Assembly (NCBI GenBank): GCA_964600195.1 | Contig: CAZRIR010000001.1 | Coordinates: 1-33,185, forward strand | Length of the DNA: 33,185 bases | Source of the DNA: an uncultured archaeon | GTDB lineage: Archaea; Asgardarchaeota; Lokiarchaeia; Sigyniarchaeales; SOKP01 | Reading direction: 5' to 3' | Part shown: positions 4,880 to 30,607 of the stretch, one piece after another | Numbering within the stretch: position 1 is the stretch's first letter | How the letters are laid out: each line of letters opens with the position of its first letter | Made by a program: the position numbers and the translations under genes | Notes under the pieces: generated by a model | Told to the model about the DNA's origin: nothing | The model's database searches: none | The model's input: the letters and a program-made list of their open reading frames with translations, nothing else

Positions 4880-5002
4880 TATTTTATATCACCTCAAATT
4901 GGTTTTTATAATCGAATATTTTTCATTAAATAATAAATACGTATTTTGTTATTAAATCAATTTCTTACAATAATGATTAAGGATTCAAACTATTTAAATG
5001 TT

Positions 5003-5040
5003 TCGAATAATGTTCGGTTTTATAACGGAAAGTTTAAATA
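5003..5040 (+). promoter_or_regulatory. Operator-promoter module copy 1: TCGAATAATGTTCGGT, 15 nt, TTAAATA
   Basis: Palindromic CGAA-N5-TTCG core at 5003-5018 and TATA-like TTAAATA at 5034-5040. The same architecture recurs at 8274 and 22009. Confidence 0.5.
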
Positions 5041-5098
5041 GTATTCGATCCATCATTTATTTAAGAAATAATATTCTTTCATAAATTTTTATTTAAAG

Positions 5099-5290
5099 GT
5101 GATCCTTGAATATATGGAATTGCATGATGTTGTGAAAAATAAAAAAGCTCAGCAAAATAAAAATATTGAAATTTACCCACAGAAAGAAGATTTGAAAATC
5201 ATAATTGAAAATTGGAAAATTAAGAAAAAAATTGAAATATTGATTGATGCTGTTCAAAAAAAAAATGAATTCTTTCGGCGAGAACAATAA
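5099..5290 (+). CDS. Small Lys-rich hypothetical protein (63 aa from GTG 5099, or 58 aa from ATG 5114)
   Basis: It sits about 60-75 nt downstream of the TATA-like element of module copy 1, with AGGTGA upstream. The sequence is low complexity and a mirror ORF exists on the minus strand, so coding status is uncertain. Confidence 0.3.
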   Translation: MILEYMELHDVVKNKKAQQNKNIEIYPQKEDLKIIIENWKIKKKIEILIDAVQKKNEFFRREQ

Positions 5291-5328: not shown

Positions 5329-6204
5329 TTAGAATTTTATTTTATGAGTCATTTTATAGGTATCAATAAAACTAGAAACGTGTAATTGAGGATAAACTCC
5401 CTCTATTGTCTTTATTTTGGTATTAATGAACTTCCATAATTCTTTTTCATTTTTCGAAACAATTTGAACGACAATATCATGATCCCCTGTTGTTGCTGCA
5501 ACTAATTGTACATCATCAAAAGAAGCGATTATATTGGCTACTGTTTCTATTTTGATGGGATCTATAGATAAACCCAATAATGCTAACGTTTTAAATCCCA
5601 CATGAAAAGGGTTAACTTGAGCATAAAATCCTTTAATAGCACCATCTTTCTGTAATTTCTGAACTCTGTTATGAATTGTGCTGGCTGCTAACCCGATTTT
5701 ATCGCTTAGTTCATTATAAGAAACTCTACAATTTTCTTGTAAGATATTTAAAATTTCTTTATCTTTTTCATCTAATGGTGAAGATTCAGTTGTTTTTGTT
5801 GTTTTTTTTATTTCTGTTTTAAACCGTTCAATGGAATAAAGGATGGAACGCATTAATAACGAAGAATTTAAATCTCCTTTTACTAGGTAGTCTTGAGCTC
5901 CTTTTTTAAGAGAATCTAAAGCCATTTCTTTCTCATCTAATCCTGTTAAAATGATAATTGGGATATTTTCATTAATTTTTAATATCGATTCAAGTGTCTT
6001 TTTTCCCTCACTATCAGGGAGATTAAGATCTAAAAGCAATATGTCAAAATGATCATTTTGTATTGCATCTAACCCATCAGAAAGTCGAGGGTGAGATTCC
6101 AATTCATAATATAAATCTTTTGACGTTTTTAATAATTCTTCTATCAAACGCACGTCGACTGGATTATCTTCTATTAAAAGAATACTGATTTTATTATTTA
6201 TCAT
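5329..6204 (-). CDS. Response-regulator receiver domain fused to an Lrp/AsnC HTH plus RAM domain
   Basis: N terminus ILLIEDNPVDVRLI...DILLLDLNLPDSEG...IIILTG is CheY-like. C terminus LDEKDKEILNILQENCRVSYNELSDKIGLAASTIHNRVQKLQKDGAIKGF followed by an AsnC-type ligand-binding (RAM) domain. Confidence 0.85.
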   Translation of the reverse strand: MINNKISILLIEDNPVDVRLIEELLKTSKDLYYELESHPRLSDGLDAIQNDHFDILLLDLNLPDSEGKKTLESILKINENIPIIILTGLDEKEMALDSLKKGAQDYLVKGDLNSSLLMRSILYSIERFKTEIKKTTKTTESSPLDEKDKEILNILQENCRVSYNELSDKIGLAASTIHNRVQKLQKDGAIKGFYAQVNPFHVGFKTLALLGLSIDPIKIETVANIIASFDDVQLVAATTGDHDIVVQIVSKNEKELWKFINTKIKTIEGVYPQLHVSSFIDTYKMTHKIKF

Positions 6205-6533
6205 TGTTATCTTACAAACACACTTTTTTTAAACTACCTAGGTAAAATCAGAATGATTTTTCATTCTATGTTATATTATATGAAAGTTAAATAAATGCCT
6301 TTCGGTCATTTGCAGTTTTTATTGAAAATTATTCGATATTAGATCAATAACACAGAAACTAAGTTGTAATCATTCGATATTTTTCTTTTGAAATTGATAA
6401 TTACAAAAATTTTTTAGGCAAATCAATTGAAGAGCAAGCTGCTTCAATGGAGGAAAGACAGGTCAAATAAATTAACTTGGTGTAGTGGCTTTAAAATTGA
6501 AAGAAAAGCTGCTAAAAAAGAGATTTAAACAAA

Positions 6534-7001
6534 TTATTCCCTATTATCAGGTAGAATTACGATTGAAAACCAGAAATTTCCAATACTTTTTACTATTTTT
6601 TCAAATTCAATAATATCTACGGGTTTTTTGATATAACAATTAGCATGAAGGTTATATGTTTTCAAAAGGTCTTCTTCCGCGTCGGAAATGCTCAAAATCA
6701 CTACGGGAATTCGCCTTAAATCGGGATCATTCTTTATTTCACTTAAAACTTCAAATCCATTTTTTTTTGGTAAATTTAAATCAAGTAAAATAAGATCTGG
6801 TTTAGATTTAACCTTATAATTCCCTTCTTTTCTAAGAAAGCGAATTGCTTCTATACCATCATTTACTACATTTAGGTTATTTGCAATTTTACTATTTTTA
6901 ATTGCAACTTGAGTTAACCGAATATCGGCGGGGTTATCTTCTACAAGTAAAATTTCAATTAATCTTGCTTTTAGATTGCTATTCATGTGTATCGAGGGCA
7001 T
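6534..7001 (-). CDS. Single-domain response regulator (CheY-like receiver)
   Basis: LLVEDNPADIRL, DLILLDLNLPKKNG, PVVILSIS and YIKKP are the receiver acidic pocket, phospho-Asp, Ser/Thr and Lys positions. Confidence 0.9.
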   Translation of the reverse strand: MPSIHMNSNLKARLIEILLVEDNPADIRLTQVAIKNSKIANNLNVVNDGIEAIRFLRKEGNYKVKSKPDLILLDLNLPKKNGFEVLSEIKNDPDLRRIPVVILSISDAEEDLLKTYNLHANCYIKKPVDIIEFEKIVKSIGNFWFSIVILPDNRE

Positions 7002-8273: not shown

Positions 8274-8311
8274 TCGAATTGTGTTCGGTCTTAGATCAAA
8301 ATACTTAAATA
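8274..8311 (+). promoter_or_regulatory. Operator-promoter module copy 2: TCGAATTGTGTTCGGT, 15 nt, TTAAATA
   Basis: Palindromic core at 8274-8289 and TTAAATA at 8305-8311. It lies upstream of two small ORFs and metV-metF. Confidence 0.5.
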
Positions 8312-8376: not shown

Positions 8377-8553
8377 ATGAGGAAATTTATTTGTCTCAAA
8401 CAAAAAAAAGAGCAAGTCTACAACAATTTATACCTGGAAGATTACAAGTTAGTTATAAAAATTCCTCTCATTGAAAAAGATAGAGACGATTCAGATATAG
8501 AGACTGAAAATTTTGACTTATCAAGCTATACTATTTTTATACCTTATGAATAA
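8377..8553 (+). CDS. Small hypothetical ORF (58 aa), below the ORF-track cutoff
   Basis: ATG preceded by GAGGT at about 8 nt, TAA stop at 8551-8553, translated by hand (MRKFICLKQKKEQVYNNLYLEDYKL...). No homology recognised. Confidence 0.25.
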   Translation: MRKFICLKQKKEQVYNNLYLEDYKLVIKIPLIEKDRDDSDIETENFDLSSYTIFIPYE

Positions 8554-8598
8554 ATCTTTGAAATGCAATTTTCCTAACAAAATTTGGAGATATAAAAA

Positions 8599-8766
8599 AT
8601 GGATCAAAAATTTGTTTACTATAAAAATTCTTGGTTTAAAGTATGCAATGCAATAAATTCTGATAGTGAAATATATTCACACATGAAAAATGGCTATTTT
8701 TTTCATGACATGAATGAATTGATAAATTTTACAAATGTAAGTGATGAAGAAGAAATCGAATTTTAA
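8599..8766 (+). CDS. Small hypothetical ORF (55 aa), below the ORF-track cutoff
   Basis: ATG preceded by GGAG, TAA stop at 8764-8766, translated by hand (MDQKFVYYKNSWFKVCNAINSDSEIY...EEEIEF). No homology recognised. Confidence 0.25.
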   Translation: MDQKFVYYKNSWFKVCNAINSDSEIYSHMKNGYFFHDMNELINFTNVSDEEEIEF

Positions 8767-8795
8767 TAAAATATAAAAAAAAAGAGTGGTATAAA

Positions 8796-9461
8796 ATGAC
8801 CATAATTACAACAAAAAAACCTTTTGAAGAAATTCTTGGAGCAATAAAAGATTTTAAGAAGATTACCATTGTTTCATGTAATTCTTGTGCGGCCATGTGT
8901 CAAACCGGGGGTGAAGAAGGAGCGAAAGAAATGGCAGAAAAATTAGAAGGCCAAGGATTTAGCGTTGTTTCAGTCATAGTTCCTGAAGAAGTATGTGATA
9001 ATCGAGTCATGCTCAAGGATTTCAGGAAAATTGATGAGGATTTAAATAATACGGATGCAATATTAACTCTAAGTTGTGGACTTGGAGTTGCTAGTATAAT
9101 AAATACGCTAGAAAAGAATCATCCTAACATTCCCGTATTCATCGGCACCAATACCGAGTTTATGGGGATGACAGAAAGAATTGGAAGGTTCTACATGCGA
9201 TGTAGGGGATGTGGCGACTGCTTGTTGAATGAAACGGGGGGAATTTGCCCCATAACCACCTGTGCCAAGTCACTCATGAATGGTCCTTGTGGGGGAATGG
9301 TAAAGGGCAAGTGTGAAGTGGGGAATTATGAACGAGATTGTGGATGGGTTTTAATTTATGAACGATTGAAACAGCTCGGAAGGTTGGATTTATTCTCAAA
9401 ATTGAGAGATCCTGTTGATTGGAGCGAATCAGGACATCAAAGAGAGGTTGTTTGGAGGTAG
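8796..9461 (+). CDS. metV: MetV-like protein (methylene-tetrahydrofolate reductase C-terminal domain, Cys-rich)
   Basis: C-terminal CRGCGDCLLNETGGICPITTCAKSLMNGPCGG...CEVG...CGW matches the MTHFR_C zinc/Fe-S domain. It lies immediately upstream of metF with a 6-nt gap. Confidence 0.75.
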   Translation: MTIITTKKPFEEILGAIKDFKKITIVSCNSCAAMCQTGGEEGAKEMAEKLEGQGFSVVSVIVPEEVCDNRVMLKDFRKIDEDLNNTDAILTLSCGLGVASIINTLEKNHPNIPVFIGTNTEFMGMTERIGRFYMRCRGCGDCLLNETGGICPITTCAKSLMNGPCGGMVKGKCEVGNYERDCGWVLIYERLKQLGRLDLFSKLRDPVDWSESGHQREVVWR

Positions 9462-9467
9462 AGGAAA

Positions 9468-10397
9468 ATGGCAGAAAAAAAAGTATTTTCAAAATTAGGA
9501 GAGGTACTTGCAAAAGGTGAGTTCGTTCTTACAGGCGAGCTCGAGCCTGAGAAGACGTGCGATCTTTCACACCTGGTTCAGGAAGCCAAGGAAATGGCCC
9601 CCTATGTCGTTGCAGCTAACGTCACTGACAGTCCATTGGGAATTGTGACCATCAACAGCCTTGCCGCTTGCGCAATCGTTCAAAGAGATGCCGGCTTGGA
9701 ATGCATCTGGCAACTAACCGTGAGAGATGTGAACAAGTTAGGGATCGCAGGAATGATAATGGGTGCGGAGGCGCTTGGCATTCATAACGTGCTTTCTTTG
9801 ACCGGCGATCATCCCAACATGGGAGACATGCCGGAATCAAAACCCGTCTTTGATCTCGACTCTGCCACGTTAGTAAAGCTCGTAAGAGAAATGGTAGATA
9901 CTGGAAGCATCAATAAGAAAGAAATCGAGCATCCACCCAAGCTACACGTGGGTGGGGCTGCAAATCCCAATTCCGATCCCATGGAAGCGGAAGCACTAAA
10001 GATAGGTCGTAAAGCTGAAGCCGGAGCGGAATTCATACAAACCCAAGTCGTTTACGACTTGGATAAAACCATAGAATTCTTGCAGGCGATCCAGAAATAC
10101 AAAGTTCCCGTCTTGCTTGGATTGTTTCCCATGAAAAGTTATGCCATTGCCAAGGGTTTTGACATGTTTGTTCCAGGAGTGGACGTGCCAAAGGACATCC
10201 TTGCCAAATGGAAGGGCATCAAGACAGACATTACGGACAAGAAGGATCAAAATGAAGCTTACGATCAAGCTAATTATGATTTTTTCAAACCTTTTGTAAC
10301 CGAACTGAAAGCGAAAAAGTTACTTGCAGGAGTGCACTGCATGGCAGTACATTATCCACGAATTTTCCCCAGACTAGTAGAAGTTATTAAAGGATGA
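9468..10397 (+). CDS. metF: 5,10-methylenetetrahydrofolate reductase (MetF family)
   Basis: 309 aa with an MTHFR TIM-barrel signature (LTGELEPEK..., VTDSPLG, QLTVRD, LSLTGDHP, FIQTQVVYD). It is markedly more GC-rich than its flanks. Confidence 0.9.
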   Translation: MAEKKVFSKLGEVLAKGEFVLTGELEPEKTCDLSHLVQEAKEMAPYVVAANVTDSPLGIVTINSLAACAIVQRDAGLECIWQLTVRDVNKLGIAGMIMGAEALGIHNVLSLTGDHPNMGDMPESKPVFDLDSATLVKLVREMVDTGSINKKEIEHPPKLHVGGAANPNSDPMEAEALKIGRKAEAGAEFIQTQVVYDLDKTIEFLQAIQKYKVPVLLGLFPMKSYAIAKGFDMFVPGVDVPKDILAKWKGIKTDITDKKDQNEAYDQANYDFFKPFVTELKAKKLLAGVHCMAVHYPRIFPRLVEVIKG

Positions 10398-10840: not shown

Positions 10841-10917
10841 TATATTATTTTTTTTTAATACATGTTATCCTAATTAAGTAATCAGAAGTCCTCAATTTAA
10901 AATATTTGATAAGAAAA

Positions 10918-10944
10918 ATTTTTGTCAATTTGATAATTTTTTTT
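10918..10944 (+). repeat. Intergenic motif ATTTTTGTCAATTTGATAATTTTTTTT (copy A)
   Basis: Near-identical, with one T indel, to 11722-11749. The two copies bracket hdrC. Confidence 0.5.
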
Positions 10945-11129
10945 ATCATAAATAAATTTTAAAAAAAAAAATAGTCTTTTATTCTTCCTACGTAAAGATA
11001 TAAACTGTGAATTGAATACTATAATTCTAAAATAAGTAATTCACTTTCAAATTAAGTTTTGAACAACAATTTACAATAAATAATTGTAATTTATATGGCT
11101 TACTTGTGAAATAAGGAAAATATTGATTT

Positions 11130-11672: not shown

Positions 11673-11680
11673 TTAGACTA

Positions 11681-11699
11681 TGATCAAAAATTTTGATCA
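11681..11699. promoter_or_regulatory. Perfect palindrome TGATCAAAA-A-TTTTGATCA between the hdrC TATA-like box and the hdrC open frame
   Basis: 9-bp arms around a single central base, read directly from the sequence. Its position fits an operator over the transcription start. Confidence 0.35.
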
Positions 11700-11700
11700 A

Positions 11701-11722
11701 TATTTAAACAAAATGACAAAAT
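11701..11722 (-). promoter_or_regulatory. Twin promoter copy (minus strand reads ATTTTGTCATTTTGTTTAAATA) facing hdrC
   Basis: Exact reverse complement of 12036-12057. It contains a TTTAAATA TATA-like box about 30-50 nt upstream of the hdrC frame. Confidence 0.55.
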
Positions 11723-11749
11723 TTTTTTTGTCAATTTTGATAATTTTTA
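11722..11749 (+). repeat. Intergenic motif TTTTTTTTGTCAATTTTGATAATTTTTA (copy B)
   Basis: See copy A at 10918-10944. A shorter AATTGATAATT core also occurs at 21905-21917 and 6392-6402. Confidence 0.5.
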
Positions 11750-12035
11750 CAAAAAAAAATGCATCTCAAACAGAACTGAATCTAGACTCTAAAAAATGTA
11801 AACAAGGTTTTCTTGATAATAATAGAAAATTCAATAATTAGTAAGTCTATAGATTTCTCAATATTGGTCATTTTTTTTTCAGGAAATAAACAATTTTAAC
11901 CACAACCCTACCTATTATTAAATCATTTTTTAAAATATAAGCTAACCTTGGTCTAAACAGCAAAAAAATTGAGACTATAAATGGTATTATCTTCCTAAAA
12001 TTAGACTATCATATTTGTCAAAATAATAAAAAATT

Positions 12036-12057
12036 ATTTTGTCATTTTGTTTAAATA
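12036..12057 (+). promoter_or_regulatory. Twin promoter copy ATTTTGTCATTTTGTTTAAATA facing ORF 12106
   Basis: 22-nt perfect inverted copy of 11701-11722. The TATA-like box lies about 50 nt upstream of ATG 12106. Confidence 0.55.
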
Positions 12058-12105
12058 AATTTCAATTATCTTAAACATAATACAATCAGTAATATAAAAG
12101 AGGAT

Positions 12106-12871: not shown

Positions 12872-14818
12872 TTGGTTGTGAATACAAGTGATGGAAGTCG
12901 AATTTTCGTTGCAATTTGTCAATGAGGTTTAAATATTGCCGAAATTATTGATTGTAAGGAACTAGCAGGTTATTCAAAAACTCTTCCTAATGTCGTTAGT
13001 AGCGGAAACTATGTCAGTCTCTGTACTACAGCAGGAGCGTCATTCATCCAAGAAAACATGGAATCGAGCAAGGCAAATCGATTGATTATTGCGGCTTGAA
13101 CTCCAAAAACTCATGAGCCCGTATTTAAAACCATTCTTAAAAATACAGGGATTGATCCATCTTATTTGGAATTTGTAAATATAAGAGAACATTCATCATT
13201 CGTTCATAGAAACAATAAAAAAGGTGCCTTTCTTGTTGCTAAGGATTTGATAAGAGCTTCAGTTGCCAGAGCGACAAATTTAGAAAAAATAGAGATAAAA
13301 CAAGTTGATCTTACTAAAAAAACGCTAATAATAGGAGCAGGTGTTGCAGGCTTATCAGCGGCACTCGATTTAGCAGAATTAGGATATGATGTGTACATGG
13401 TTGAAAAAAGACCCAGCATTGGTGGTTTAATGGCCAAGCTTGATAGAACTTTTCCAACTGATGATTGCAGTATTTGAATATTAGGTCCTATCATGCTTAA
13501 AGTAGCGAATGTTCCCAATATTTACATATATACCTTCTCGGAAGTCGAAGATATCTCAGGATTTATAGGTAATTTTAAGGTCATTATTAGAAAAAAAGCA
13601 AGATATGTAACGGAAGATTGTAATGGTTGTGGAGCCTGCGTGGAAGCGTGTCCTGCATATGGTTATGATGAATTTAATGAGTGTTTAAATTCTAGAAAAG
13701 CAATATATACATATTTTGCCCAAGCAGTACCATCAATTGCACAAATTGACATGGAACGTTGCATTCAATGCGAAATCTGTAAAGATGTCTGTGAATTGAA
13801 TGCCATAGATTTTACTCAAAAAGATAGAATTGAGAATGCAAAAGTCGGTTCAATAATAGTAGCTACGGGTCTTGAAGTTCATAAGGGAAAAGAATATGGA
13901 AGGGGAAAATACGAAAATATAATCACTCAACTTGAATTGGAGAGGATTCTAGCTCCAAATGGTCCAACGGTAGGACATTTAGCAAGGCCTTCAGATGGAA
14001 AGCGACCTAAAAAGATATTATTCATTAATTGTGCCGGTTCAAGGGATCGAAATACCCATCCCTATTGTAGCGTTGTATGCTGTAATTTAACAGTTAAAAA
14101 TTCAAAGCTTATAAAATCTGAATACCCTGATACTGAGATTGTTGTAAGCTTCATTGACATGCGATGTGCAGGAAAAGATTATGAAGAATATTATACTCGT
14201 GCAAGAGATAGTGGTATCATTTTTCTTAGAGGTCATATTGGAAACATTACAGAAGATCCTAAATCAAAGGATCTTATCGTTCAAATCGAAGCGTTTACCA
14301 TGGATCGTTTCTTAGAGATGGAATTTGATCTTATTGTCTTATCATCAGCATCAATTCCATCGAAACATGCTAAAAAAATTGAAAAATTGTTAGGATTGGA
14401 GACGAGTCGAGATGGATTCTTTAAAGAAATGCATTCCCGTTTGGATGCAATTGATACAAAAATCCCAGGAATATGCATAGCAGGAGCAGCACAAGGGCCA
14501 AAATCGATACCTGATGCAATAACTCAAGGAAGAGCTGCAGCAGCATCATTAGCAAGTATAATGCACAAGGACACATATGAAATTCTTTTAGTGAGAGGAT
14601 ATATTGATAATGATTCATGCTCAAAATGTGGATTATGTCAATTGAATTGTCCTTATAATGCCATACAGATATCTAAAAGTCATGCGGAAGTCAATGAAAT
14701 TCTCTGTAAAGGATGCGGCACTTGTTTAGCAAATTGTCCATCCGAAGCAATTACCTTAAAATATTATAGAGAATCTCAATATGAAAATCAAATTGATTCA
14801 ATATTGTATGAATATTAA
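12872..14818 (+). CDS. hdrA: Heterodisulfide reductase subunit A with three in-frame UGA (selenocysteine) codons at 12923-12925, 13097-13099 and 13475-13477
   Basis: One continuous frame joins a hand-translated N-terminal part (SRIFVAICQ-U-GLNI...RLIIAA-U-TPKTHEP) with track ORFs 13166..13477 and 13493..14818. The only interruptions are TGA, each aligned to a Cys of the paralogue at 22176..24722. Also present: FAD motif IIGAGVAGLSAA and ferredoxin motifs CNGCGACVEACP, CIQCEICKDVC, CSKCGLCQLNCP, CKGCGTCLANCP. Start is uncertain (TTG 12872, GTG 12878, or near-cognate ATT 12857 after AGGAGGG). Confidence 0.85.
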
Positions 14819-16765: not shown

Positions 16766-16863
16766 AAATAATTAACCAAATAATTTTAATTAATATTCTA
16801 TAATGAATATAACTATTAAAAAATTGCTCATATCTATTTAAGATGCATTCTTGACAATATTAT

Positions 16864-16879
16864 TTGTCATTTTATTTAT
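16864..16879 (+). promoter_or_regulatory. TTGTCATTTTATTTAT promoter-like element, part of a TGACAA-N6-TTGTCA palindrome (16852-16869)
   Basis: 16-nt string identical to the minus-strand reading of 21874-21889 and related to the twin promoter at 12039-12057. It points toward the 3' end of cdc48, with no plus-strand ORF downstream. Confidence 0.3.
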
Positions 16880-21801: not shown

Positions 21802-21873
21802 TTAATTCTACACCTCACTTCAAACTATATTTATTGTAGATATTAATCTATGTAAAGTACCTTTAGAAGAGAT

Positions 21874-21889
21874 ATAAATAAAATGACAA
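21874..21889 (-). promoter_or_regulatory. TTGTCATTTTATTTAT promoter-like element facing ORF 21801
   Basis: The minus-strand reading is identical over 16 nt to 16864-16879. It lies about 75 nt upstream of ATG 21801. Confidence 0.4.
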
Positions 21890-22008
21890 CAATAATTTCA
21901 AAAAAATTGATAATTTTATTTTTCAAAAAAAAAATTTTAACAACATTACTGGTTAATTTGGTCTATCACGAAAAGTTTATGGTTATATTTGTTATTTATA
22001 GATTTTCA

Positions 22009-22046
22009 TCGAATAATATTCGGTAGTAAATGCACAAGCTTAAATA
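22009..22046 (+). promoter_or_regulatory. Operator-promoter module copy 3: TCGAATAATATTCGGT, 15 nt, TTAAATA
   Basis: Perfect 13-nt palindrome CGAATA-A-TATTCG inside 22009-22024, with TTAAATA at 22040-22046. It lies upstream of the wHTH-hdrA-mvhD operon. Confidence 0.5.
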
Positions 22047-22175
22047 ACCTTCGTTCTATTATAAATATGACATTTCATATTTGGTAGAAAATTTTTCAAA
22101 ATTCTTGATTTTCAAATTTTTTTTATCAAGGTGATTAACTATTCATTATTAAATGGTGGAAGGGATGGAAAACAA

Positions 22176-24722
22176 ATGGACATTTATTCAATATTATCTC
22201 ATGAGTTTAGAAGGAATATTTTGTTCCTGCTTGAAAAAGAAGGATACATTCCCTATACTGATTTAATGGATAAGCTAGGTTTAGACCAAACAGGGCAGCT
22301 CAATTTTCATTTAAGAAAACTTGGTTCTCTTATTGGAAAAGACAAAAAATCATATTTTTTAACTGAGGATGGTAAAAGAATTTTAAAAATACTCAGCATC
22401 AATAAAAGAATCTTATCAGGAGAAGAAGTAGAATATATCAATTCCAAAGGGAGTGAAATAAATAGAATAGGAGTAATTATTTGTAATTGTAATACTGAAA
22501 TCTCCAACACGATTGATATAAACGCACTAGAAAAATACATAAACAGGTTGCCAAATGTTGTTTCAGTAAAGATTTTTGAAAATTTATGTCAAGAGAAAAA
22601 TTTAGAAAAAATATCCGATTGGGTTAAAGAAAATTTTCTAAATAAAGTTGTCATTGCTGCTTGTTCTCCAAAATCGCATCAACTTGTCTTTGAACGAATT
22701 TTTGAGGAAGTAATAGATAAGTCAAACATTGAAATTGCTAATATAAGAGAACAATGTTGCTGGGTTCATCAAGGAAACGATAAACAAATTGAATCCTCTC
22801 AAGTATTGAAAAAGGCTCAATTACTAATCGAAGCTGCAGTTGAATGTTTATACCTTCAGAAAGAAGTAAAAGTTAAGAGGGTCGAAGTAGAAAAAAGTTG
22901 TGCAATATTGGGAGGGGGTATTGCGGGCATGACACTAGCATTAAATTTAGCTAGAGCCGGAATTAAAGTCTACCTAATCGAAAAAAGTCCTACTTTAGGT
23001 GGTAAGGTGGCACGATGGCATAGAATCCATAAAATGGGTGATTGTTCAATTTGTTTCATTTCAGAATTAATAGGTGAAATTGTAAAAGAAAAAAATATAG
23101 AAATTTTAACAAATTGCGAGATAACGAGCGTTTCGGGAGAAGTAGGTAATTTTTCAATAAATCTAATTAAAAAACCTCGATATATTGATGAGAAAAAATG
23201 TACTGGTTGCATGCAATGCATTGATGTATGCAGCATGGAAAAACCGAATCAATATGAGTTCAATCTCGTTAATCGGAAGATTATTTTCCTTCCTTTCCAA
23301 AACTCATATCCCTACACGCCTATTATTGAAGAAGAAGACATAAAGAATTGTCTCAATTGTAGAATTTGCGAAAGAGCATGCATGAATAATGCAATTGACT
23401 TAAATCAAAAACCAGAGGCAATTAAAATAAAAGCTGGTGTAAAGGCCATTGCTATAGGTGCCGATCTATATTCTGATCTAGAGGAATATCACCATGACCC
23501 TAAAAAAAACATCATCACTTCGGTTGAATTTGAAAGAATTTTATCATCAGATGGTCTTACTGAGGGGAAGATTTTAAAGCTTTCCGATAATAAACCGCCA
23601 AAAACAATATCAATTATTCAGGATATTGGACCTAATCGAGATCATTTAGGCCTTACGGATATAATTGCTCAAAAATATTTAAATTGTATTAGTGTTAAAA
23701 ATCCAGATAGTCAGGTAAAAGTATTTTACACCATGAATAACTTGTATCATAATCATGAAGCGATCATCAAATCTACAGATCCGAGATTCTATTATGTCAA
23801 TCAACTTGAAATAAAAAGAGAAAATGATGAAAACATCATTATCGCAGATAATAAAGAGTATCCAAGTGATTTGATTGTACTAAATCTTGATTTGATACCT
23901 AATAAGGATTTAAAAAACCTTAGAAAGACTTTAGATTTTACTCTAGATGATAACGGATTCATGAGTGAAGATACGTTAGCTTCTGGTATATTTGGTGTCG
24001 GAACAATCCTTGGTCCTTACAATTATCAATCAACAATAAATAGTGCTAATAAAGTTGCACTAGAAATCATATCACTCCTTTCAAATGATTATTTGATCTC
24101 GGAATTTACGGGAGTGGAAATCGACCATAAAAGATGTGGTCTATGTTCTTTATGCGTGAATGCTTGCCCTTATAATGCCATTACTATTGAAGATGACAAA
24201 ATCAATATTGATAAGTTTAAATGCAAGGGTTGTGGTACTTGCGTGAGTGTTTGTCCTACAAATGCGATTGAAATGAATATAGATACTGATGAAAAAATAC
24301 TTAGAAAAATAGATATTTATTCGGGGTTTAATGCCACGCCCAAAATACTAGCTTTTTGCTGTAAATCTTGTGGATATGCCGCAGCTGATGATGCCGGACT
24401 CAAAAAACAGTTTTATAAACCCAATATCTTTATCATTAGAGTTCCCTGTACGGGGCGTATTGATACACATTTTATAACAAGAGCTTTCGAAAAGGGATTT
24501 CAAGGTGTCATGATTATTGGATGCAGGAAAGATGCTTGTAGATATATCGATGGTATTCAAAAAGTACAGAAAAAAGTTCAACTTTTGAAAAAAGTCTTGG
24601 GTCCACGACTAAGCAGGAAAATCATCATTAAAAATCTAAATGCTGTCGAAGGAATCAAGTTTTCAAATTTTGTAAATAGATTTTATCATATATTAAAGGA
24701 GGAATACGAATTTGCGACTTAA
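22176..24722 (+). CDS. hdrA: Fusion protein: ArsR-like winged HTH + HdrA (Cys type) + C-terminal MvhD domain
   Basis: N terminus SILSHEFRRNILFLLEKEGYIPYTDLMDKLGLDQTGQLNFHLRKLGSLIGKDKKSYFLTEDGKRIL is a wHTH. HdrA motifs: VIICNCNTEI, IAACSPKSHQ, REQCCWVH, GGGIAGM, GDCSICF and four CxxCxxCxxxC(P) motifs. C terminus ILAFCCKSCGYAAAD...RVPCTGRID...IIGCRKDACRY is MvhD/FlpD-like. The track start is GTG 22131; ATG 22176 sits after a GGAAGGGATGG purine run. Confidence 0.85.
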   Translation: MDIYSILSHEFRRNILFLLEKEGYIPYTDLMDKLGLDQTGQLNFHLRKLGSLIGKDKKSYFLTEDGKRILKILSINKRILSGEEVEYINSKGSEINRIGVIICNCNTEISNTIDINALEKYINRLPNVVSVKIFENLCQEKNLEKISDWVKENFLNKVVIAACSPKSHQLVFERIFEEVIDKSNIEIANIREQCCWVHQGNDKQIESSQVLKKAQLLIEAAVECLYLQKEVKVKRVEVEKSCAILGGGIAGMTLALNLARAGIKVYLIEKSPTLGGKVARWHRIHKMGDCSICFISELIGEIVKEKNIEILTNCEITSVSGEVGNFSINLIKKPRYIDEKKCTGCMQCIDVCSMEKPNQYEFNLVNRKIIFLPFQNSYPYTPIIEEEDIKNCLNCRICERACMNNAIDLNQKPEAIKIKAGVKAIAIGADLYSDLEEYHHDPKKNIITSVEFERILSSDGLTEGKILKLSDNKPPKTISIIQDIGPNRDHLGLTDIIAQKYLNCISVKNPDSQVKVFYTMNNLYHNHEAIIKSTDPRFYYVNQLEIKRENDENIIIADNKEYPSDLIVLNLDLIPNKDLKNLRKTLDFTLDDNGFMSEDTLASGIFGVGTILGPYNYQSTINSANKVALEIISLLSNDYLISEFTGVEIDHKRCGLCSLCVNACPYNAITIEDDKINIDKFKCKGCGTCVSVCPTNAIEMNIDTDEKILRKIDIYSGFNATPKILAFCCKSCGYAAADDAGLKKQFYKPNIFIIRVPCTGRIDTHFITRAFEKGFQGVMIIGCRKDACRYIDGIQKVQKKVQLLKKVLGPRLSRKIIIKNLNAVEGIKFSNFVNRFYHILKEEYEFAT

Positions 24723-25470
24723 ATTTCTCATAACTTCATTGACTTCATGTAGTGGTTGCATTTCTTCCTTGATTTCATTAGATATTTTCTCTCAATTCCT
24801 TGAAAGGACTGAGATCTCATATTTCCCATTCATGTCAGATAAAATTAATATAGAACCATGTGATATAGCCCTTATAGAGGGTTGTGTTTCGGAGGAAGCA
24901 CAAATTGATTATCTTAAAGATATTAGAATCTCAGCAAAAAAAGTATATGCGTTAGGAACCTGCGCCGCTTTTGGAGGTATTTTGAGCCTTTCAAGAAAGA
25001 AGAGGGCCTCACCATTATCAGATTATGTTGAAATAGATGGAATCATTCCTGGTTGTCCTCCCCCTAATAAACTGCTTGGAAATTGCCTGATTAGATTACT
25101 TGAAAGAAAAAATATTGAATTATCACCTAAAAATCTTTGTAACGATTGCCCTTATAAAATAACTTTTAATATTAAACCAGAAATCGAAATCAAAAAAATT
25201 TTACCCCAAAATAGTGAATTTAACACGGGAGACGATGAACAAACTTGTTTCTTAAATAGGGGTATCATGTGCATGGGACCCATTACCAGAGAAGGTTGTG
25301 ATCATGAATGTATAAAACGAGGAATTCCATGTGAAGGATGCATGGGTCCAGTTTCTAAAGATTTCACCTCAAATTTAGTTAATTATTTAAGTCTATTTCA
25401 TGTTGTAAAAGATTTGAAAAAATATTCTGGAATTTTCTATCGATTTTCAAAACCAAGGATTTGGAGGTAG
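24712..25470 (+). CDS. mvhG: [NiFe] hydrogenase small subunit, Mvh (group 3c-like) type, no signal peptide
   Basis: SCSGC, GTCAAFGG and PGCPP proximal-cluster motifs plus Cys-rich distal motifs (CNDCPYK, CMGPITREGCDHEC, PCEGCMGP). TTG start after GGAGG, overlapping the upstream gene by 11 nt. Confidence 0.85.
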   Translation: MRLKFLITSLTSCSGCISSLISLDIFSQFLERTEISYFPFMSDKINIEPCDIALIEGCVSEEAQIDYLKDIRISAKKVYALGTCAAFGGILSLSRKKRASPLSDYVEIDGIIPGCPPPNKLLGNCLIRLLERKNIELSPKNLCNDCPYKITFNIKPEIEIKKILPQNSEFNTGDDEQTCFLNRGIMCMGPITREGCDHECIKRGIPCEGCMGPVSKDFTSNLVNYLSLFHVVKDLKKYSGIFYRFSKPRIWR

Positions 25471-25474
25471 GCAG

Positions 25475-26773
25475 ATGCAAAAAGTTGTAGAAGTATGCAC
25501 GAGAGTGGAGGGTCATGGAAGTTTAGATATATTTATAAAGGATGATAATGTATCTCACGTAGAATTCAAGATAGGTCCGTATAGAGATTTTGAAAACATG
25601 TTAATTGGAAAAAAAATTGAAGATGTTCCCAGAATAATTTCAAGAGTGTGTGGCTTGTGTCATGCTTCTCAAAGTATAGTCAGCTGTAAGACTATTGAAA
25701 CAATGTATAATATTAAACCTCACATGCAATCTATTATTGTAAGACGTCTTTTAATGACAGGTGAACTTATAAAATCCCATTTGATGCATTATTTCTTTCA
25801 ATCATTTCCAGATCTTCTAGAAATTTTTAATATTAATGAAAAAGTTCTAAATTTAAATGATCTATTGAAATATAATAGCAATTTAACATCAAATATCTTC
25901 GATCTGATAAAAGTTGGAAATGAAATAAATAATCTTTTTGGAGGTCGTTCCGTGCATTTAATAACACCATTACCCGGAGGAATTATTTTTAGGCCTTCAC
26001 AAAAATCTATTAAAATTGCTCAAAAACTATTCGAAAAAGCCTCATTTTTACTAGAAATGATTATCGAAGATTTTTCCAATATTTTTTCAAATTTTACTCC
26101 TCCTGAAGATTATTCACTTTCTAAAGCATACTTTTTAGCATTAAACAATAACAAGGTCTATGATCGTTATGAAGGGGTTCTCACTATAAAAAAAAATTCT
26201 AATTACAATGATTTTCACGAAACAGAATACAAATCTTATTTCAATAAAGATCTAAATCTTCATGGAATTGATTTTGTTAACCAAAACGGTGAAAATTGCT
26301 TAGTTGGACCACTTGCAAGAAATAATATAGTTGAAAATTATGGAGTTGAGCAAATAACATCATATCTCAACTTATTTCAAAAATCTTGGAAAAATAACCT
26401 CTTGTATGCCAATTTTTTAAGATTAATTGAGGTATATTGTGAAGTAATCAAGTCATTAGATTTATTGAATGACCAGGTAATAAAGAATGAATACCCCCTT
26501 CCAGAATTAGTAAATATCAAAAATAATATTGGTATAGCCGTTGTTGATGCACCTAGAGGAACATTAATCCACCAATATCGCGTAAATGATAGAAAAACTG
26601 TTGAAGAAGCAAAACTTTTCATTGCTACAGAGATGAATCTTCCGATTATCAATCAAATGATCACGGATTATGCCAAAAAACTCTATTTGAAGAAAGACAT
26701 ATCATTTGTCAAGAAAAATGTTCAAAAGATGATTAGAGCATTCGATCCATGCATAGCATGTGCAACACATTAA
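25475..26773 (+). CDS. mvhA: [NiFe] hydrogenase large subunit, Mvh type
   Basis: N-terminal RVEGHG and RVCGLC, C-terminal DPCIACATH nickel-ligand motif. The ORF stops immediately after that His. Confidence 0.9.
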   Translation: MQKVVEVCTRVEGHGSLDIFIKDDNVSHVEFKIGPYRDFENMLIGKKIEDVPRIISRVCGLCHASQSIVSCKTIETMYNIKPHMQSIIVRRLLMTGELIKSHLMHYFFQSFPDLLEIFNINEKVLNLNDLLKYNSNLTSNIFDLIKVGNEINNLFGGRSVHLITPLPGGIIFRPSQKSIKIAQKLFEKASFLLEMIIEDFSNIFSNFTPPEDYSLSKAYFLALNNNKVYDRYEGVLTIKKNSNYNDFHETEYKSYFNKDLNLHGIDFVNQNGENCLVGPLARNNIVENYGVEQITSYLNLFQKSWKNNLLYANFLRLIEVYCEVIKSLDLLNDQVIKNEYPLPELVNIKNNIGIAVVDAPRGTLIHQYRVNDRKTVEEAKLFIATEMNLPIINQMITDYAKKLYLKKDISFVKKNVQKMIRAFDPCIACATH

Positions 26774-26804
26774 GCATCAATTAAAAAATAAGGAGATTGG
26801 TTCT

Positions 26805-27827
26805 ATGAAAATACTCACTGAAAATGAAAGAAGAATCATCCAAGCAGAACAATTATGCGAAGTTTTTTTATTATATTTTGATGAAAAATTAGGTCATATA
26901 CCAATTTTAGTGAGTCCTGAGGATGTCATGAAAAAAAATAAAGAAACGATGCAAATTCTCCGTATTCATTCCATTTGGTTCTTAGATCTAAGTGATAAGA
27001 CATCTCTTGATCGCGTGGATTTAGAATATGGAGGGAAAATGTACTTTGCAAAAAAATTTCTAGTTCCTTCTTTTAGAAATAAAAGAAGAGCTGGTTCAGA
27101 AGAGGTTAAATTTGAAACGATAGTCTTAATTTTAGCACTCCCCATAGAAATGGATATTTTCGGGGGAGCTTTACTCGGGGAAATGGCTGAGAGAATCGCC
27201 AAACACTTTAAATTTTATCTTTCTGACGTGATTGAAGCAGAAATAGAAAAATTGAATGTAATTATAAAGCCAAACGCTAAATATTTAATTGAAAAGGGAG
27301 AAAAAATTAAAAAAAGAATAAGGATGCTCATTAAAAACACCTGCTCCCAATATTTTCAATCCGTAATAAAAAAAACAGATACGACCATCTTAAAAATTCA
27401 AAAAGCAATTTCCTACTTGTCGTTAAAAGGGGTGCCAGTGAGTTATATAGTTAGCAATAACAAAAATATTGGATTTTCTAACATAAAATTATTTGATCAA
27501 AAGACTACCCATCATCCTAACAGTAAAAATGAAATCCCTTTTCAAATATCTAATATCAATACCATTGAAAATAGTCAAGAGGTCGAAATATCCGTTAAAA
27601 ATCAAACTAACAAAGAATTTAAAGATCTATTGATAAAAATAACTTCATTATACGAGTTTTTTGAACAAGTTATTCTTTACGATAAAATTGAACTTTGGTT
27701 TCCAGAGGAAGAAATTCTTTTCATCCTTCCTGAGATGATGATGGAAAATGAATATATTTTATATTTATTAGAGCAAAATCAAAAAAAAGTCATTTTTCAA
27801 AAAAAAATTAAACTACTTAAAGAATAA
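26805..27827 (+). CDS. Hypothetical protein (340 aa), last gene of the hdrA-mvhDGA operon
   Basis: ATG 26805 lies 9 nt after AAGGAG, 31 nt downstream of mvhA. It has no Cys clusters. The N-terminal ~150 aa show an alternating beta/alpha pattern that could be longin/roadblock-like; this is a guess by eye. Confidence 0.55.
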   Translation: MKILTENERRIIQAEQLCEVFLLYFDEKLGHIPILVSPEDVMKKNKETMQILRIHSIWFLDLSDKTSLDRVDLEYGGKMYFAKKFLVPSFRNKRRAGSEEVKFETIVLILALPIEMDIFGGALLGEMAERIAKHFKFYLSDVIEAEIEKLNVIIKPNAKYLIEKGEKIKKRIRMLIKNTCSQYFQSVIKKTDTTILKIQKAISYLSLKGVPVSYIVSNNKNIGFSNIKLFDQKTTHHPNSKNEIPFQISNINTIENSQEVEISVKNQTNKEFKDLLIKITSLYEFFEQVILYDKIELWFPEEEILFILPEMMMENEYILYLLEQNQKKVIFQKKIKLLKE

Positions 27828-28845: not shown

Positions 28846-29034
28846 TTTATTAACCACACTATTTTTAAAGTATTTTAATGACTGATAATTAAATATAATT
28901 AATTCCAATTAAACTTAATGATTTTAAAAATAGGTCAGTAATTCAAAAAAAAAATAGATAAAATCATGTTTCAATAAAAATTCAGCTTATTATGGAATAA
29001 TCCAGGAAATATTCTAAATTCATGGAAAAAAAAA

Positions 29035-29799: not shown

Positions 29800-30181
29800 T
29801 TCTAATCCAATAATTTTGTATCATCCCAGATTATTTTTTATATAATTAAAATTGAAATATCGCAATACATGAAAAAACATTTATCTTTTCTTTTAATGTA
29901 ATTTTCTCCAATAATAATCACTATTTCAAACTTTTAGAATCAATTGCTAATGCTTTTTTTCCAATAACTCACATTTTCATATTTTCATTTATCTCTTTAA
30001 TAATTTTTAATGACATTTAATTAAATGTAATTAATTATAATTAAAGTTATTGATTTTTAGAATCAGAAAAATGATTTTAAAAATATCAAAAAAAAATAAC
30101 AGATTTATGAATATATCTTAGTTATATGATCATAACCATAAACATTTCTAATGATGAAATTAAAAATATCTCATAAGATGA

Positions 30182-30607
30182 TTCATAATCGATATTATAG
30201 ATTCTGAAATCCTTGAAATATTGAAGGAGAATAGTAGGATTTCTTATTACAAAATTGCCGATAAGATAGGAAAGACAGAAGCGACTGTTAGACGCAGGAT
30301 AAAAAAATTAGAAAAAAATAGAATAATCAAGAAATATACAACTGAAGTTAAGCTGAAATCTGAAAATTATATAAATATTTTAGTTAAGATTGAGATTAAT
30401 TTAAAAGAAATAAAAACAATTTTGGATGAATTAAATTTAATGGAAGAAATTACGGATATATGGAGATTAAGCGGTGATGCTGGCTTGCTATTAAGAGTAA
30501 AGATCCCTTCGTTAAATTATTTTAATCCCTTTATTGAAGAAAAGATATCTTTAATCAAGGGAATAAAATTAATTAAAGCTAGCTTGATTTTAGAAGTCAT
30601 TAAATAA
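30182..30607 (+). CDS. Lrp/AsnC family transcriptional regulator (5' end unresolved)
   Basis: HTH SRISYYKIADKIGKTEATVRRRIKKLEKNRIIKKY plus a RAM-like C-terminal domain. Family-like sequence IDIIDSEILEILKEN continues upstream of the track's TTG 30221 to 30182, but without a canonical start codon. A nearby ATG (30178) is in another frame. Confidence 0.75.
   Translation, partial: FIIDIIDSEILEILKENSRISYYKIADKIGKTEATVRRRIKKLEKNRIIKKYTTEVKLKSENYINILVKIEINLKEIKTILDELNLMEEITDIWRLSGDAGLLLRVKIPSLNYFNPFIEEKISLIKGIKLIKASLILEVIK

Follow-up and report, generated by a model that had tools for sequence, protein, structure and literature searches.

Introduction

The format abcdeWWWe'd'c'b'a' for the boxes that feast/famine regulatory proteins (FFRPs) of archaea bind has been established by Yokoyama et al. 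(PMC2715240), and the optimum obtained for FL11 by SELEX is C-CGAAA[AAT/ATT]TTTCG-G (PMC2715240). Here we describe a related box, CGAAY-N3-RTTCG (Y, pyrimidine; R, purine; W, A or T), which stands together with a TATA-like TTAAATA and a TTCR half-site at three promoters in a stretch of 33,185 nt (hereafter the window: contig CAZRIR010000001.1, positions 1 to 33,185, assembly GCA_964600195.1) of an uncultured archaeon of the Asgardarchaeota (Lokiarchaeia; Sigyniarchaeales). With a rough probability of 0.6, we read this sequence element as an FL11-like FFRP recognition box, the likeliest binder of which would be REC-Lrp, a window-encoded response regulator with a receiver domain (REC) fused to an Lrp module; one two-component signal would then co-regulate the hydrogenase/Hdr module and methylene-tetrahydrofolate (methylene-THF) reductase.

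The nearest characterised relative is FL11 (PH1519) of Pyrococcus sp. OT3, whose natural sites are TGAAAWWWTTTCA (optimum CCGAAA[AAT/ATT]TTTCGG). Its box has the same format as the present one, with identity at positions a to d (C/T, G, A, A) and at the flanking G; Ala34, Ser36, Thr37 and His39 are identical in REC-Lrp, and both systems have multiple phased boxes, one of which is at the regulator's own promoter. Position e is T/C here versus A in FL11, and residues 24/35 are Tyr/Ala here versus Leu/Glu. Unlike FL11, REC-Lrp has an N-terminal receiver, and its control is presumably by phosphorylation instead of, or besides, a small-molecule ligand; its targets would be H2/Hdr and one-carbon (C1) genes, whereas those of FL11 belong to lysine metabolism.

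The activators Ptr2 (M. jannaschii), LysM and Ss-LrpB (Sulfolobus) have been described as using a dimer site of highly constrained position, just upstream of the B recognition element (BRE), and as recruiting TBP (PMC2995911). The present system is similar to these in a tightly placed Lrp dimer site upstream of the core promoter, in extra phased sites and in targets of redox/energy metabolism (theirs being ferredoxin, rubredoxin and pyruvate:ferredoxin oxidoreductase). It differs in that their boxes are GGACGA.., TTCGA.. and TTGCAA.., and in that their proteins have Arg39 and no receiver domain; the box edge here is 6 or 16-18 nt from TATA, and activation here is presumed.

SurR of Thermococcales is similar in that one regulator co-controls hydrogenase and linked electron-flow operons via a short palindrome, whose position relative to BRE/TATA decides between activation and repression, but it is an ArsR-type winged helix-turn-helix (wHTH) protein with a disulfide redox switch, an unrelated motif (GTTn3AAC) and no two-component system. 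The archaeal response regulators of Bat type, LtrR and FilR1 share with REC-Lrp the combination of REC and HTH output and a gene next to a histidine kinase (HK), but their outputs are HTH_10 or other wHTH types. According to a 2018 census, archaeal response regulators with HTH domains are rare, and REC-HTH_AsnC-RAM is not among the listed classes (PMC5847659). While an FFRP/Lrp-family box next to an archaeal promoter is a familiar kind of element, a receiver-fused Lrp regulator is less familiar, and our literature search found no paper describing this regulator, box or regulon.

A tripartite module at three promoters

The first-pass annotation, which was made from the window sequence alone, had pointed out three similar 16-mers, TCGAATAATATTCGGT (22009-22024), TCGAATAATGTTCGGT (5003-5018) and TCGAATTGTGTTCGGT (8274-8289), and their coordinates and plus strand have been confirmed exactly. 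TTAAATA begins 15 nt past each 16-mer (at 22040, 5034 and 8305), that is, 17 nt past the 13-bp core, and TTCR stands 3 nt past TTAAATA at all three sites. The spacing of "exactly 15 nt" claimed by that annotation thus holds in the window and is relaxed to 14-16 nt in orthologous sites of relatives, and the module of box and TATA that it described reaches further 3', up to the conserved TTCR. When the three regions are aligned, only the box, TTAAATA and TTC(G/A) 3 nt past TATA are conserved, and the 15-nt spacers differ. The elements are as follows (labels beginning with L are loci of other genomes; L018 is from the metagenome-assembled genome (MAG) DZ2M.219; sORF, small open reading frame).

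22010-22022, plus strand: box 1 (CGAATAATATTCG) of the hdrA promoter, whose 13 bp make a perfect palindrome in the format abcdeWWWe'd'c'b'a'
22040-22046, plus strand: TATA-like TTAAATA, 17 nt past the box core, preceded by the purine-rich, BRE-like CACAAGC
22049-22053, plus strand: CTTCG half-site, 31 nt downstream of the right half of box 1
5004-5016, plus strand: box 1 of the sORF63 promoter, CGAATAATGTTCG, with an ortholog in L018
5034-5047, plus strand: TTAAATA-GTA-TTCG, TATA-like element and half-site, with a second box, TAAATAGTATTCG, at 5035-5047
8275-8287, plus strand: box 1 of the sORF58-sORF55-metV-metF promoter, CGAATTGTGTTCG, with orthologs at L018 1766-1778 and L056 4129-4141
8305-8318, plus strand: TTAAATA-TTC-TTCA, TATA-like element and half-site of the metVF-unit promoter

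At the hdrA promoter, the CTTCG half-site and TATA together read TAAAT-AAC-CTTCG, a degenerate second box. The 8275 box sits in a divergent intergenic region common to the metVF unit and the HK-REC-REC-Lrp operon, and this operon is flanked by the 5004 and 8275 sites.

With up to two mismatches allowed, the pattern TCGAATNNTRTTCGGT has five matches in the window versus 0.67 from shuffles. The core CGAA-N5-TTCG has exactly three matches in the 33,185 bp on both strands, where 0.35 are expected, and three matches were reached in 0/100 shuffles. As the first annotation had stated, no core lies in coding sequence; all three are intergenic, and intergenic DNA is 14% of the window in a gene map built on open reading frames (ORFs) and Pfam. 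TTWWATA at 16-18 nt downstream is found for about 1.4% of intergenic positions per orientation. Among the 56 intergenic TATA-like heptamers of the window, only four are followed by NNN-TTCR, and three of these four are the module sites; since just 1/53 of the other heptamers has TTCR, TTCR as a general promoter feature after TATA has been rejected. Because of the shuffle counts, the intergenic location and the rarity of the TATA and TTCR elements, the tripartite module (box, TATA-like element and TTCR) is real.

The box and the predicted specificity of REC-Lrp

The box at 22010, CGAAT-AAT-ATTCG, fits the FFRP format, and all 12 sites found in this study fit a 5+3+5 form. The following regulator genes of the window have been considered.

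5329-6204, minus strand: REC-Lrp response regulator (REC + HTH_AsnC + AsnC/RAM by Pfam and by alignment to FL11/PH1519), the proposed binder
6534-7001, minus strand: stand-alone REC protein in the same operon as REC-Lrp, syntenic in L018, L056, L058 and L059
7059-8117, minus strand: membrane histidine kinase with HisKA and HATPase_c domains, whose gene is the first of the HK-REC-REC-Lrp operon and diverges from the metVF promoter
30185-30607: small Lrp/AsnC, a predicted DNA binder
1705-2142: DUF134 protein, a predicted DNA binder

The Lrp module of REC-Lrp is aligned with FL11/PH1519 at E=3e-24. In FL11 numbering it has Tyr24, Ala34, Ala35, Ser36, Thr37 and His39, and FL11 has Leu24, Ala34, Glu35, Ser36, Thr37 and His39, the four base-contacting residues (34, 36, 37 and 39) being the same in both. 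In the published contact pattern, Ala34 and Thr37 have contacts to a (C or T) and Ser36 to b (G or A); the contact of His39 is with the complement of c (c=A), and d and e are affected by residues 24 and 35 (PMC2715240). The code thus predicts (C/T)GA.. for REC-Lrp, in agreement with the observed box, and the sole deviation of the box from the FL11 optimum is at position e, which is governed by the substituted residues 24 and 35. The published rules explain the box at 4/5 half-site positions, with d and e only partly explained.

The receiver domain of REC-Lrp is matched by Pfam Response_reg at 1.5e-19 and contains the motifs LLIEDN, LLLDLNLPD, IIILTG and YLVKG; no curated NCBIfam model reaches its cut-off with this protein. 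REC-Lrp has the attributes of a two-component response regulator, namely a receiver domain (acidic pocket, phospho-acceptor Asp, conserved Thr and Lys) and an HK in the same operon, and the synteny with HK is conserved in other loci.

Conservation in related Asgard genomes

The strict pattern was scanned against 185,579 GTDB species genomes, among which the source genome is not a species representative. Of the 18 matches obtained, about 16 are chance matches in bacteria and only L018 is a true ortholog; the match in L012 (Promethearchaeota) falls in an ORF. More loci were gathered via HdrA and REC-Lrp homologs and their contigs. In DZ2M.219, the box is present at the syntenic small-ORF promoter (L018) and at the promoters of hdrA (L019, TCGAATATTTTTCGGA) and metV (L018, TCGAACATTGTTCGGT). 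It is also carried by the hdrA promoters of L022 (GCGAACAATATTCGGT) and L023 (GCGAACATTGTTCGAT), where HdrA is only 73% identical, and, in the L022/L023 lineages, by the metV/HK site (L056) and the GNAT-sORF63 sites (L056 and L058).

TTAAATA or TTATATA is located 16-18 nt past the core in 12/12 sites found, and TTCR 3 nt past TATA in 10/11 sites listed. Between the window and L022/L023, essentially just the box and TATA can be aligned, and the spacers have diverged. Purine runs (AAAG, AAAT or CGAAA-like) precede (C/T)TTAAATA or TTTATATA in 12/12 sites, the arrangement of a BRE followed by TATA, which is consistent with TTAAATA as the putative TATA box. A study of transcription start sites in Asgard archaea was not found in our literature search.

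The box core is missing in 24/28 orthologous hdrA upstream regions outside the window, and the box as a general feature of Asgard hdrA promoters has accordingly been rejected. Many of these promoters, including that of L021 (HdrA identity 75%), have TGATC, then TATA and then TTGACAA-N7-TTATCAT. Since most other hdrA promoters are without the box, hdrA, and probably metVF too, joined the box regulon in one clade only.

In the GTDB scan, the matches in Paenibacillus spp. (L004, L006, L009 and L017) fall in one nearly identical orthologous non-coding stretch. It adjoins the start of an opposite-strand gene and is a conserved leader/promoter region unrelated to the box module.

REC-Lrp loci in other lineages

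The recognition residues Y-AAST-H are kept in 112/116 scorable REC-Lrp homologs from MAGs labelled Loki-, Thor-, Hod-, Hermod- and Heimdall-; the box is therefore expected to accompany REC-Lrp genes. We searched a relaxed box, YGAAY-N3-RTTCR, in five REC-Lrp loci of other lineages (97 kb in total). These contain 6 exact cores and 24 relaxed boxes (6.2 and 24.8 per 100 kb), while hdrA loci outside the clade (369 kb) contain 1.1 exact and 3.8 relaxed per 100 kb, giving an approximately 6-fold enrichment of boxes around REC-Lrp. Although only 18% of the DNA in the five loci is intergenic, 23/24 relaxed boxes are located there.

An identical TGAATATTATTCA occurs 71-117 nt upstream of the REC-Lrp start codon in 4/5 loci (L062, L063, L064 and L066), and in three of these four it directly follows a ATTATATAT(T/A)AA TATA element. 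In the window, L018 and L059, a CGAA(T/G)-N3-TTTCA box is found about 120 nt upstream of REC-Lrp, 26-27 nt before TATA. The copy in the window is the following.

6323-6335, minus strand: candidate autoregulatory box, CGAATAATTTTCA, with the REC-Lrp start codon 119 nt and the TATA-like element TTTATTTAA 27 nt downstream, conserved in L018 and L059

A site in the control region of the regulator's own gene is therefore found both in outgroup loci and in the window. Autoregulatory sites are typical of the Lrp family (PMC2995911), and REC-Lrp probably controls its own gene via a related box.

Related boxes in the outgroup loci are also located upstream of GDH (4 loci), of a Cys-rich small protein (3 loci) and of an sORF58 homolog (L061). 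The box conserved upstream of GDH in outgroups was not found in the 356-nt GDH upstream region of the window.

A Cys-rich Zn-ribbon-like module (CP.CGEEYSLGRKIYHEC..) is encoded at L064 6764-7357, L062 7520-7765, L066 7575-7820 and L063 7875-8063. It is a small stand-alone protein next to HK-REC genes and in L064 is fused to an Lrp module; every copy has a box upstream.

Positions of boxes relative to TATA and to each other

For 65 boxes of all Asgard loci, we made a histogram of how far the nearest TTWWATA is from the box edge. Two peaks stand out on a sparse background, one at exactly 6 nt with 8 cases (7 or more being independent) and one at 16-18 nt with 11 cases, and the two are about 11 nt apart, i.e., one helical turn. 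Such peaks show the constrained position known for upstream activating sites (UAS) of the Ptr2/LysM/Ss-LrpB type. The 5004 box is a member of both classes, with the plus-strand TATA of sORF63 at 17 nt and, at 6 nt, a minus-strand TTAAATA (4991-4997), which faces the 96aa-Usp-acetyl-CoA transferase genes. An auxiliary box is located nearby.

4913-4925, plus strand: auxiliary box of degenerate sequence, CGAATATTTTTCA, at a distance of 91 nt from the 5004 box, its centre 40 nt upstream of the minus-strand 96-aa gene

Tandem boxes 30-31 nt apart are found in L061, L062, L064 and L066, and a box-to-box spacing of 91-92 nt in the window, L062 and L064. At all three window promoters, the TTCR half-site is 31 nt downstream of the right arm of box 1, and TATA and TTCR together read TAAAT-NNN-RTTCR, overlapping TATA; under the FFRP code this is plausible as a weaker second box. 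Sites of Lrp regulators are usually clustered at 2-3 helical turns (PMC2995911), and both the tandem boxes and the 31-nt half-site show this centre-to-centre clustering.

Proposed target units in the window

The transcription units downstream of the three module sites are as follows.

22176-27827, plus strand: operon of the wHTH(DUF7347)-HdrA-MvhD fusion, MvhG, MvhA and a 355-aa protein, with operon synteny in relatives
8377-10397, plus strand: unit of sORF58, sORF55, metV and metF, with conserved small ORFs
5114-5290, plus strand: small ORF sORF63, 58 aa from ATG, with a conserved E-N-W-K/R-x-K-K-K motif

The distances from the start of the 16-mers to the likely ATG are 167 nt (hdrA), 111 nt (sORF63) and 103 nt (sORF58), a range slightly above the 60-130 nt first reported. 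The small ORFs (5114-5290, 8377-8553 and 8599-8766; 55-58 aa) have no Pfam/NCBIfam match. Because they are conserved as proteins in relatives, in sequence as well as in position, we regard all three as genes. Conserved features of sORF58 are ..YxNxYxEDxKxVIKxP.. and an ..IFIPYE end; its homolog in L056 is 22 nt from metV, and the sORF63 homologs in L056 and L058 come after a GNAT gene. The three small ORFs appear to be the first genes of box-controlled transcripts. In particular, metVF would be co-transcribed with two conserved small ORFs, and its link to the box depends on that co-transcription.

Proposed mechanism and alternative explanations

The conserved box and TATA at orthologous hdrA, metV and small-ORF promoters, the intergenic location and the sharp spacing peaks support the proposal of the first-pass annotation that a shared transcription-factor site may co-regulate hdrA-mvhDGA and metVF. 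The same annotation called the site an operator. Since the box is upstream of BRE/TATA, a UAS-type role is at least as likely as that of a repressor operator. From its four candidate binders, we single out REC-Lrp, and the evidence below argues against the HdrA wHTH and the small Lrp/AsnC.

We propose that the regulator, perhaps in phosphorylated form, would activate from the upstream box by aiding TBP/TFB assembly on TATA, with the box in a fixed helical phase upstream of BRE/TATA at the three promoters (hdrA-mvhDGA, sORF58-sORF55-metVF and sORF63). At the weaker box overlapping TATA, 31 bp downstream, a second, in-phase dimer may bind and, when occupancy is high, weaken or invert the effect, and auto-repression may take place at the regulator's own promoter in outgroup lineages. 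SurR, TrmBL1, Tgr and other archaeal regulators usually activate when their site is upstream of BRE/TATA and repress when it is over or after TATA. Because upstream sites usually activate, we favour activation as the sign of regulation by analogy. Binding of REC-Lrp to the box is predicted from the residue code and the genomic association.

Several points weigh against this reading of the box. TATA elements were called by sequence, and AT-rich intergenic DNA has other TATA-like strings, e.g., TATTTAAAT just upstream of the 5004 box. The residue code is an empirical rule from a handful of proteins and leaves e=T/C unexplained (Tyr24 and Ala35 in REC-Lrp versus Leu24 and Glu35 in FL11), and the box centres are mostly A/T, yet several contain G or C (TGT, GAA, TCT and ATC). 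About 10 nt separate the box edge from BRE, against the "a few bp" of Ptr2 and LysM, and orthologous sites are non-independent observations. The conserved half-site past TATA and the repressor behaviour of FL11 both fit repression. Lastly, the Zn-ribbon-Lrp paralog in L064 has the same recognition residues as REC-Lrp; the binder could be any member of its Lrp subfamily, of which REC-Lrp is the only one within the window.

The most serious alternative, though in our estimate an unlikely one, keeps the same regulator and takes the box as part of a repressor operator pair: a tetramer or octamer on box 1 and on the TATA-overlapping box would exclude TBP/TFB, and the 15-nt spacing would reflect box-to-box geometry. 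It would account for the specificity of the TTCR half-site to these promoters (3 of 4 cases among 56 TATA-like heptamers) and its retention in 10/11 sites listed; TAAAT is an acceptable half-site by the FFRP code, as Thr37 tolerates a=T and Ser36 tolerates b=A, tandem full boxes 30-31 nt apart exist in other lineages, and the box at outgroup REC-Lrp promoters comes directly after TATA. FL11, moreover, represses by covering promoters (PMC2995911). However, the high-affinity full palindrome stands upstream of BRE/TATA, which is usually a mark of activation in archaea, and boxes of the 6-nt class have no obvious downstream box, so that the constraint seems to be on the box-to-TATA phase itself.

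That another protein binds the box is improbable; the candidates are the small Lrp/AsnC, the DUF134 protein, the HdrA wHTH (DUF7347) as a trigger enzyme, and a factor from outside the window. All three window-encoded candidates are predicted DNA binders, in DZ2M.219 the small Lrp shows synteny with the hdrA operon, DUF134 is met again in some neighbourhoods of REC-Lrp, and the L064 paralog with identical recognition residues has been noted above. The small Lrp/AsnC (Tyr24, Thr34, Glu35, Ala36, Thr37 and Arg39) has, however, a LysM/FL10-like pattern, with Arg39 and Ala36 predicting TTCGA-WWW-TCGAA, and this box is not enriched in the window (7 weak matches versus 9.95 expected); it has been rejected as binder on these grounds, and its gene also has no canonical start codon. 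As for DUF134, it is no FFRP, and most box-carrying outgroup loci do not have it. The HdrA wHTH is disfavoured, and rejected as binder, because its fusion is present in essentially all Asgard orthologs while most of their promoters are without the box; boxes in hdrA loci are at background frequency (1.1 per 100 kb).

The small Lrp/AsnC frame (30182-30607) opens just past a stop and begins with ..IIDIID.., without a canonical start codon before HTH helix 1; the first ATG/GTG/TTG would truncate the HTH, and the DZ2M.219 ortholog (L019 16872-17294) is alike. The protein has either a non-canonical start or an N-terminal truncation. The wHTH (DUF7347) fused to HdrA-MvhD (22176-24722) is 65-88% identical across MAGs labelled Loki-, Thor-, Hod-, Hermod- and Odin- (homologs P0002-P0120).

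A non-regulatory similarity, by chance in AT-rich DNA with many TATA-like strings or by recent duplication of a promoter cassette, as the extra spacer similarity TAACCRAAATATTTAAATATTATTC of two DZ2M.219 promoters might suggest, is very improbable, since chance is contradicted by the shuffle controls, the box of the window is in intergenic DNA only, the three window copies share box, TATA and TTCR and have different spacers, genomes with HdrA only 73% identical show conservation at the same positions, Rfam gives no RNA family, and the box is enriched near REC-Lrp genes in unrelated loci. An RNA element or riboswitch has been rejected (no Rfam family in the window, box upstream of TATA, and a 5-bp stem that is too weak), as has a terminator, since the three sites are between divergently transcribed genes and none is downstream of a gene's 3' end.

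Other features of the window

A second, unrelated palindrome, TTGAYAA-N6-9-TTRTCA, has 5 occurrences in the window versus 0.17 expected (10906-10948, 11714-11734, 16851-16869 and 21872-21943). It is located upstream of the 89-aa, Fer4 and AMP-binding genes, with a degenerate copy in the hdrA/203-aa divergent region, and is directly downstream of the hdrA TATA in most other Asgard lineages (L021, L026, L029, L031, L035-L039, L050 and L052). It has the look of an operator for a further and more widely conserved regulator of energy-metabolism genes.

A second HdrA-like gene (13166-14818, plus strand) has an in-frame TGA at 13475-13477, in DDCSI-[TGA]-ILGP, at the usual Cys position of HdrA; this is probably a selenocysteine codon and not the sign of a pseudogene. 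The copies of a 68-nt direct repeat (28864-28931 and 29996-30063; 79% identical) are upstream of the 70-aa gene, after which the first TauE gene comes, and of the second TauE gene. Between the Fer4 gene and the 199-aa gene is a region with an inverted repeat of 65 nt (74%; 11679-11743 and 12015-12079) on either side.

Biological meaning

Gene regulation in Asgard archaea is almost uncharted, and very few archaeal two-component systems have a defined DNA target. The present result provides a concrete, testable triplet of a receiver-fused Lrp, a 13-bp box and target operons. The proposed targets, the electron-bifurcating Mvh-HdrA hydrogenase and MetVF, are central to H2/syntrophy hypotheses of eukaryogenesis. 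MetFV associates with HdrABC-MvhD in acetogens, and for this reason the hdrA-mvh and metVF units may form one H2-linked system of methylene-THF reduction.

Our wider proposal, which is tentative and to which we give somewhat less than even odds, is that REC-Lrp represents an Asgard-wide class of phosphorylation-controlled Lrp with one specificity (YGAAY-N3-RTTCR) and two phased positions (box edge 6 or 17 nt upstream of TATA), which has been rewired in the clade of the window to switch Mvh-HdrA and MetVF together. Bacterial CAP, with its class II and class I positions, would be a rough parallel to these two positions, and the two box-to-TATA spacings offer a clean system for studying how bacterial-type regulators meet eukaryote-like TBP/TFB machinery. 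If this Asgard-wide reading is true, energy metabolism in the archaeal relatives of eukaryotes would have its first defined sensor-to-promoter circuit.

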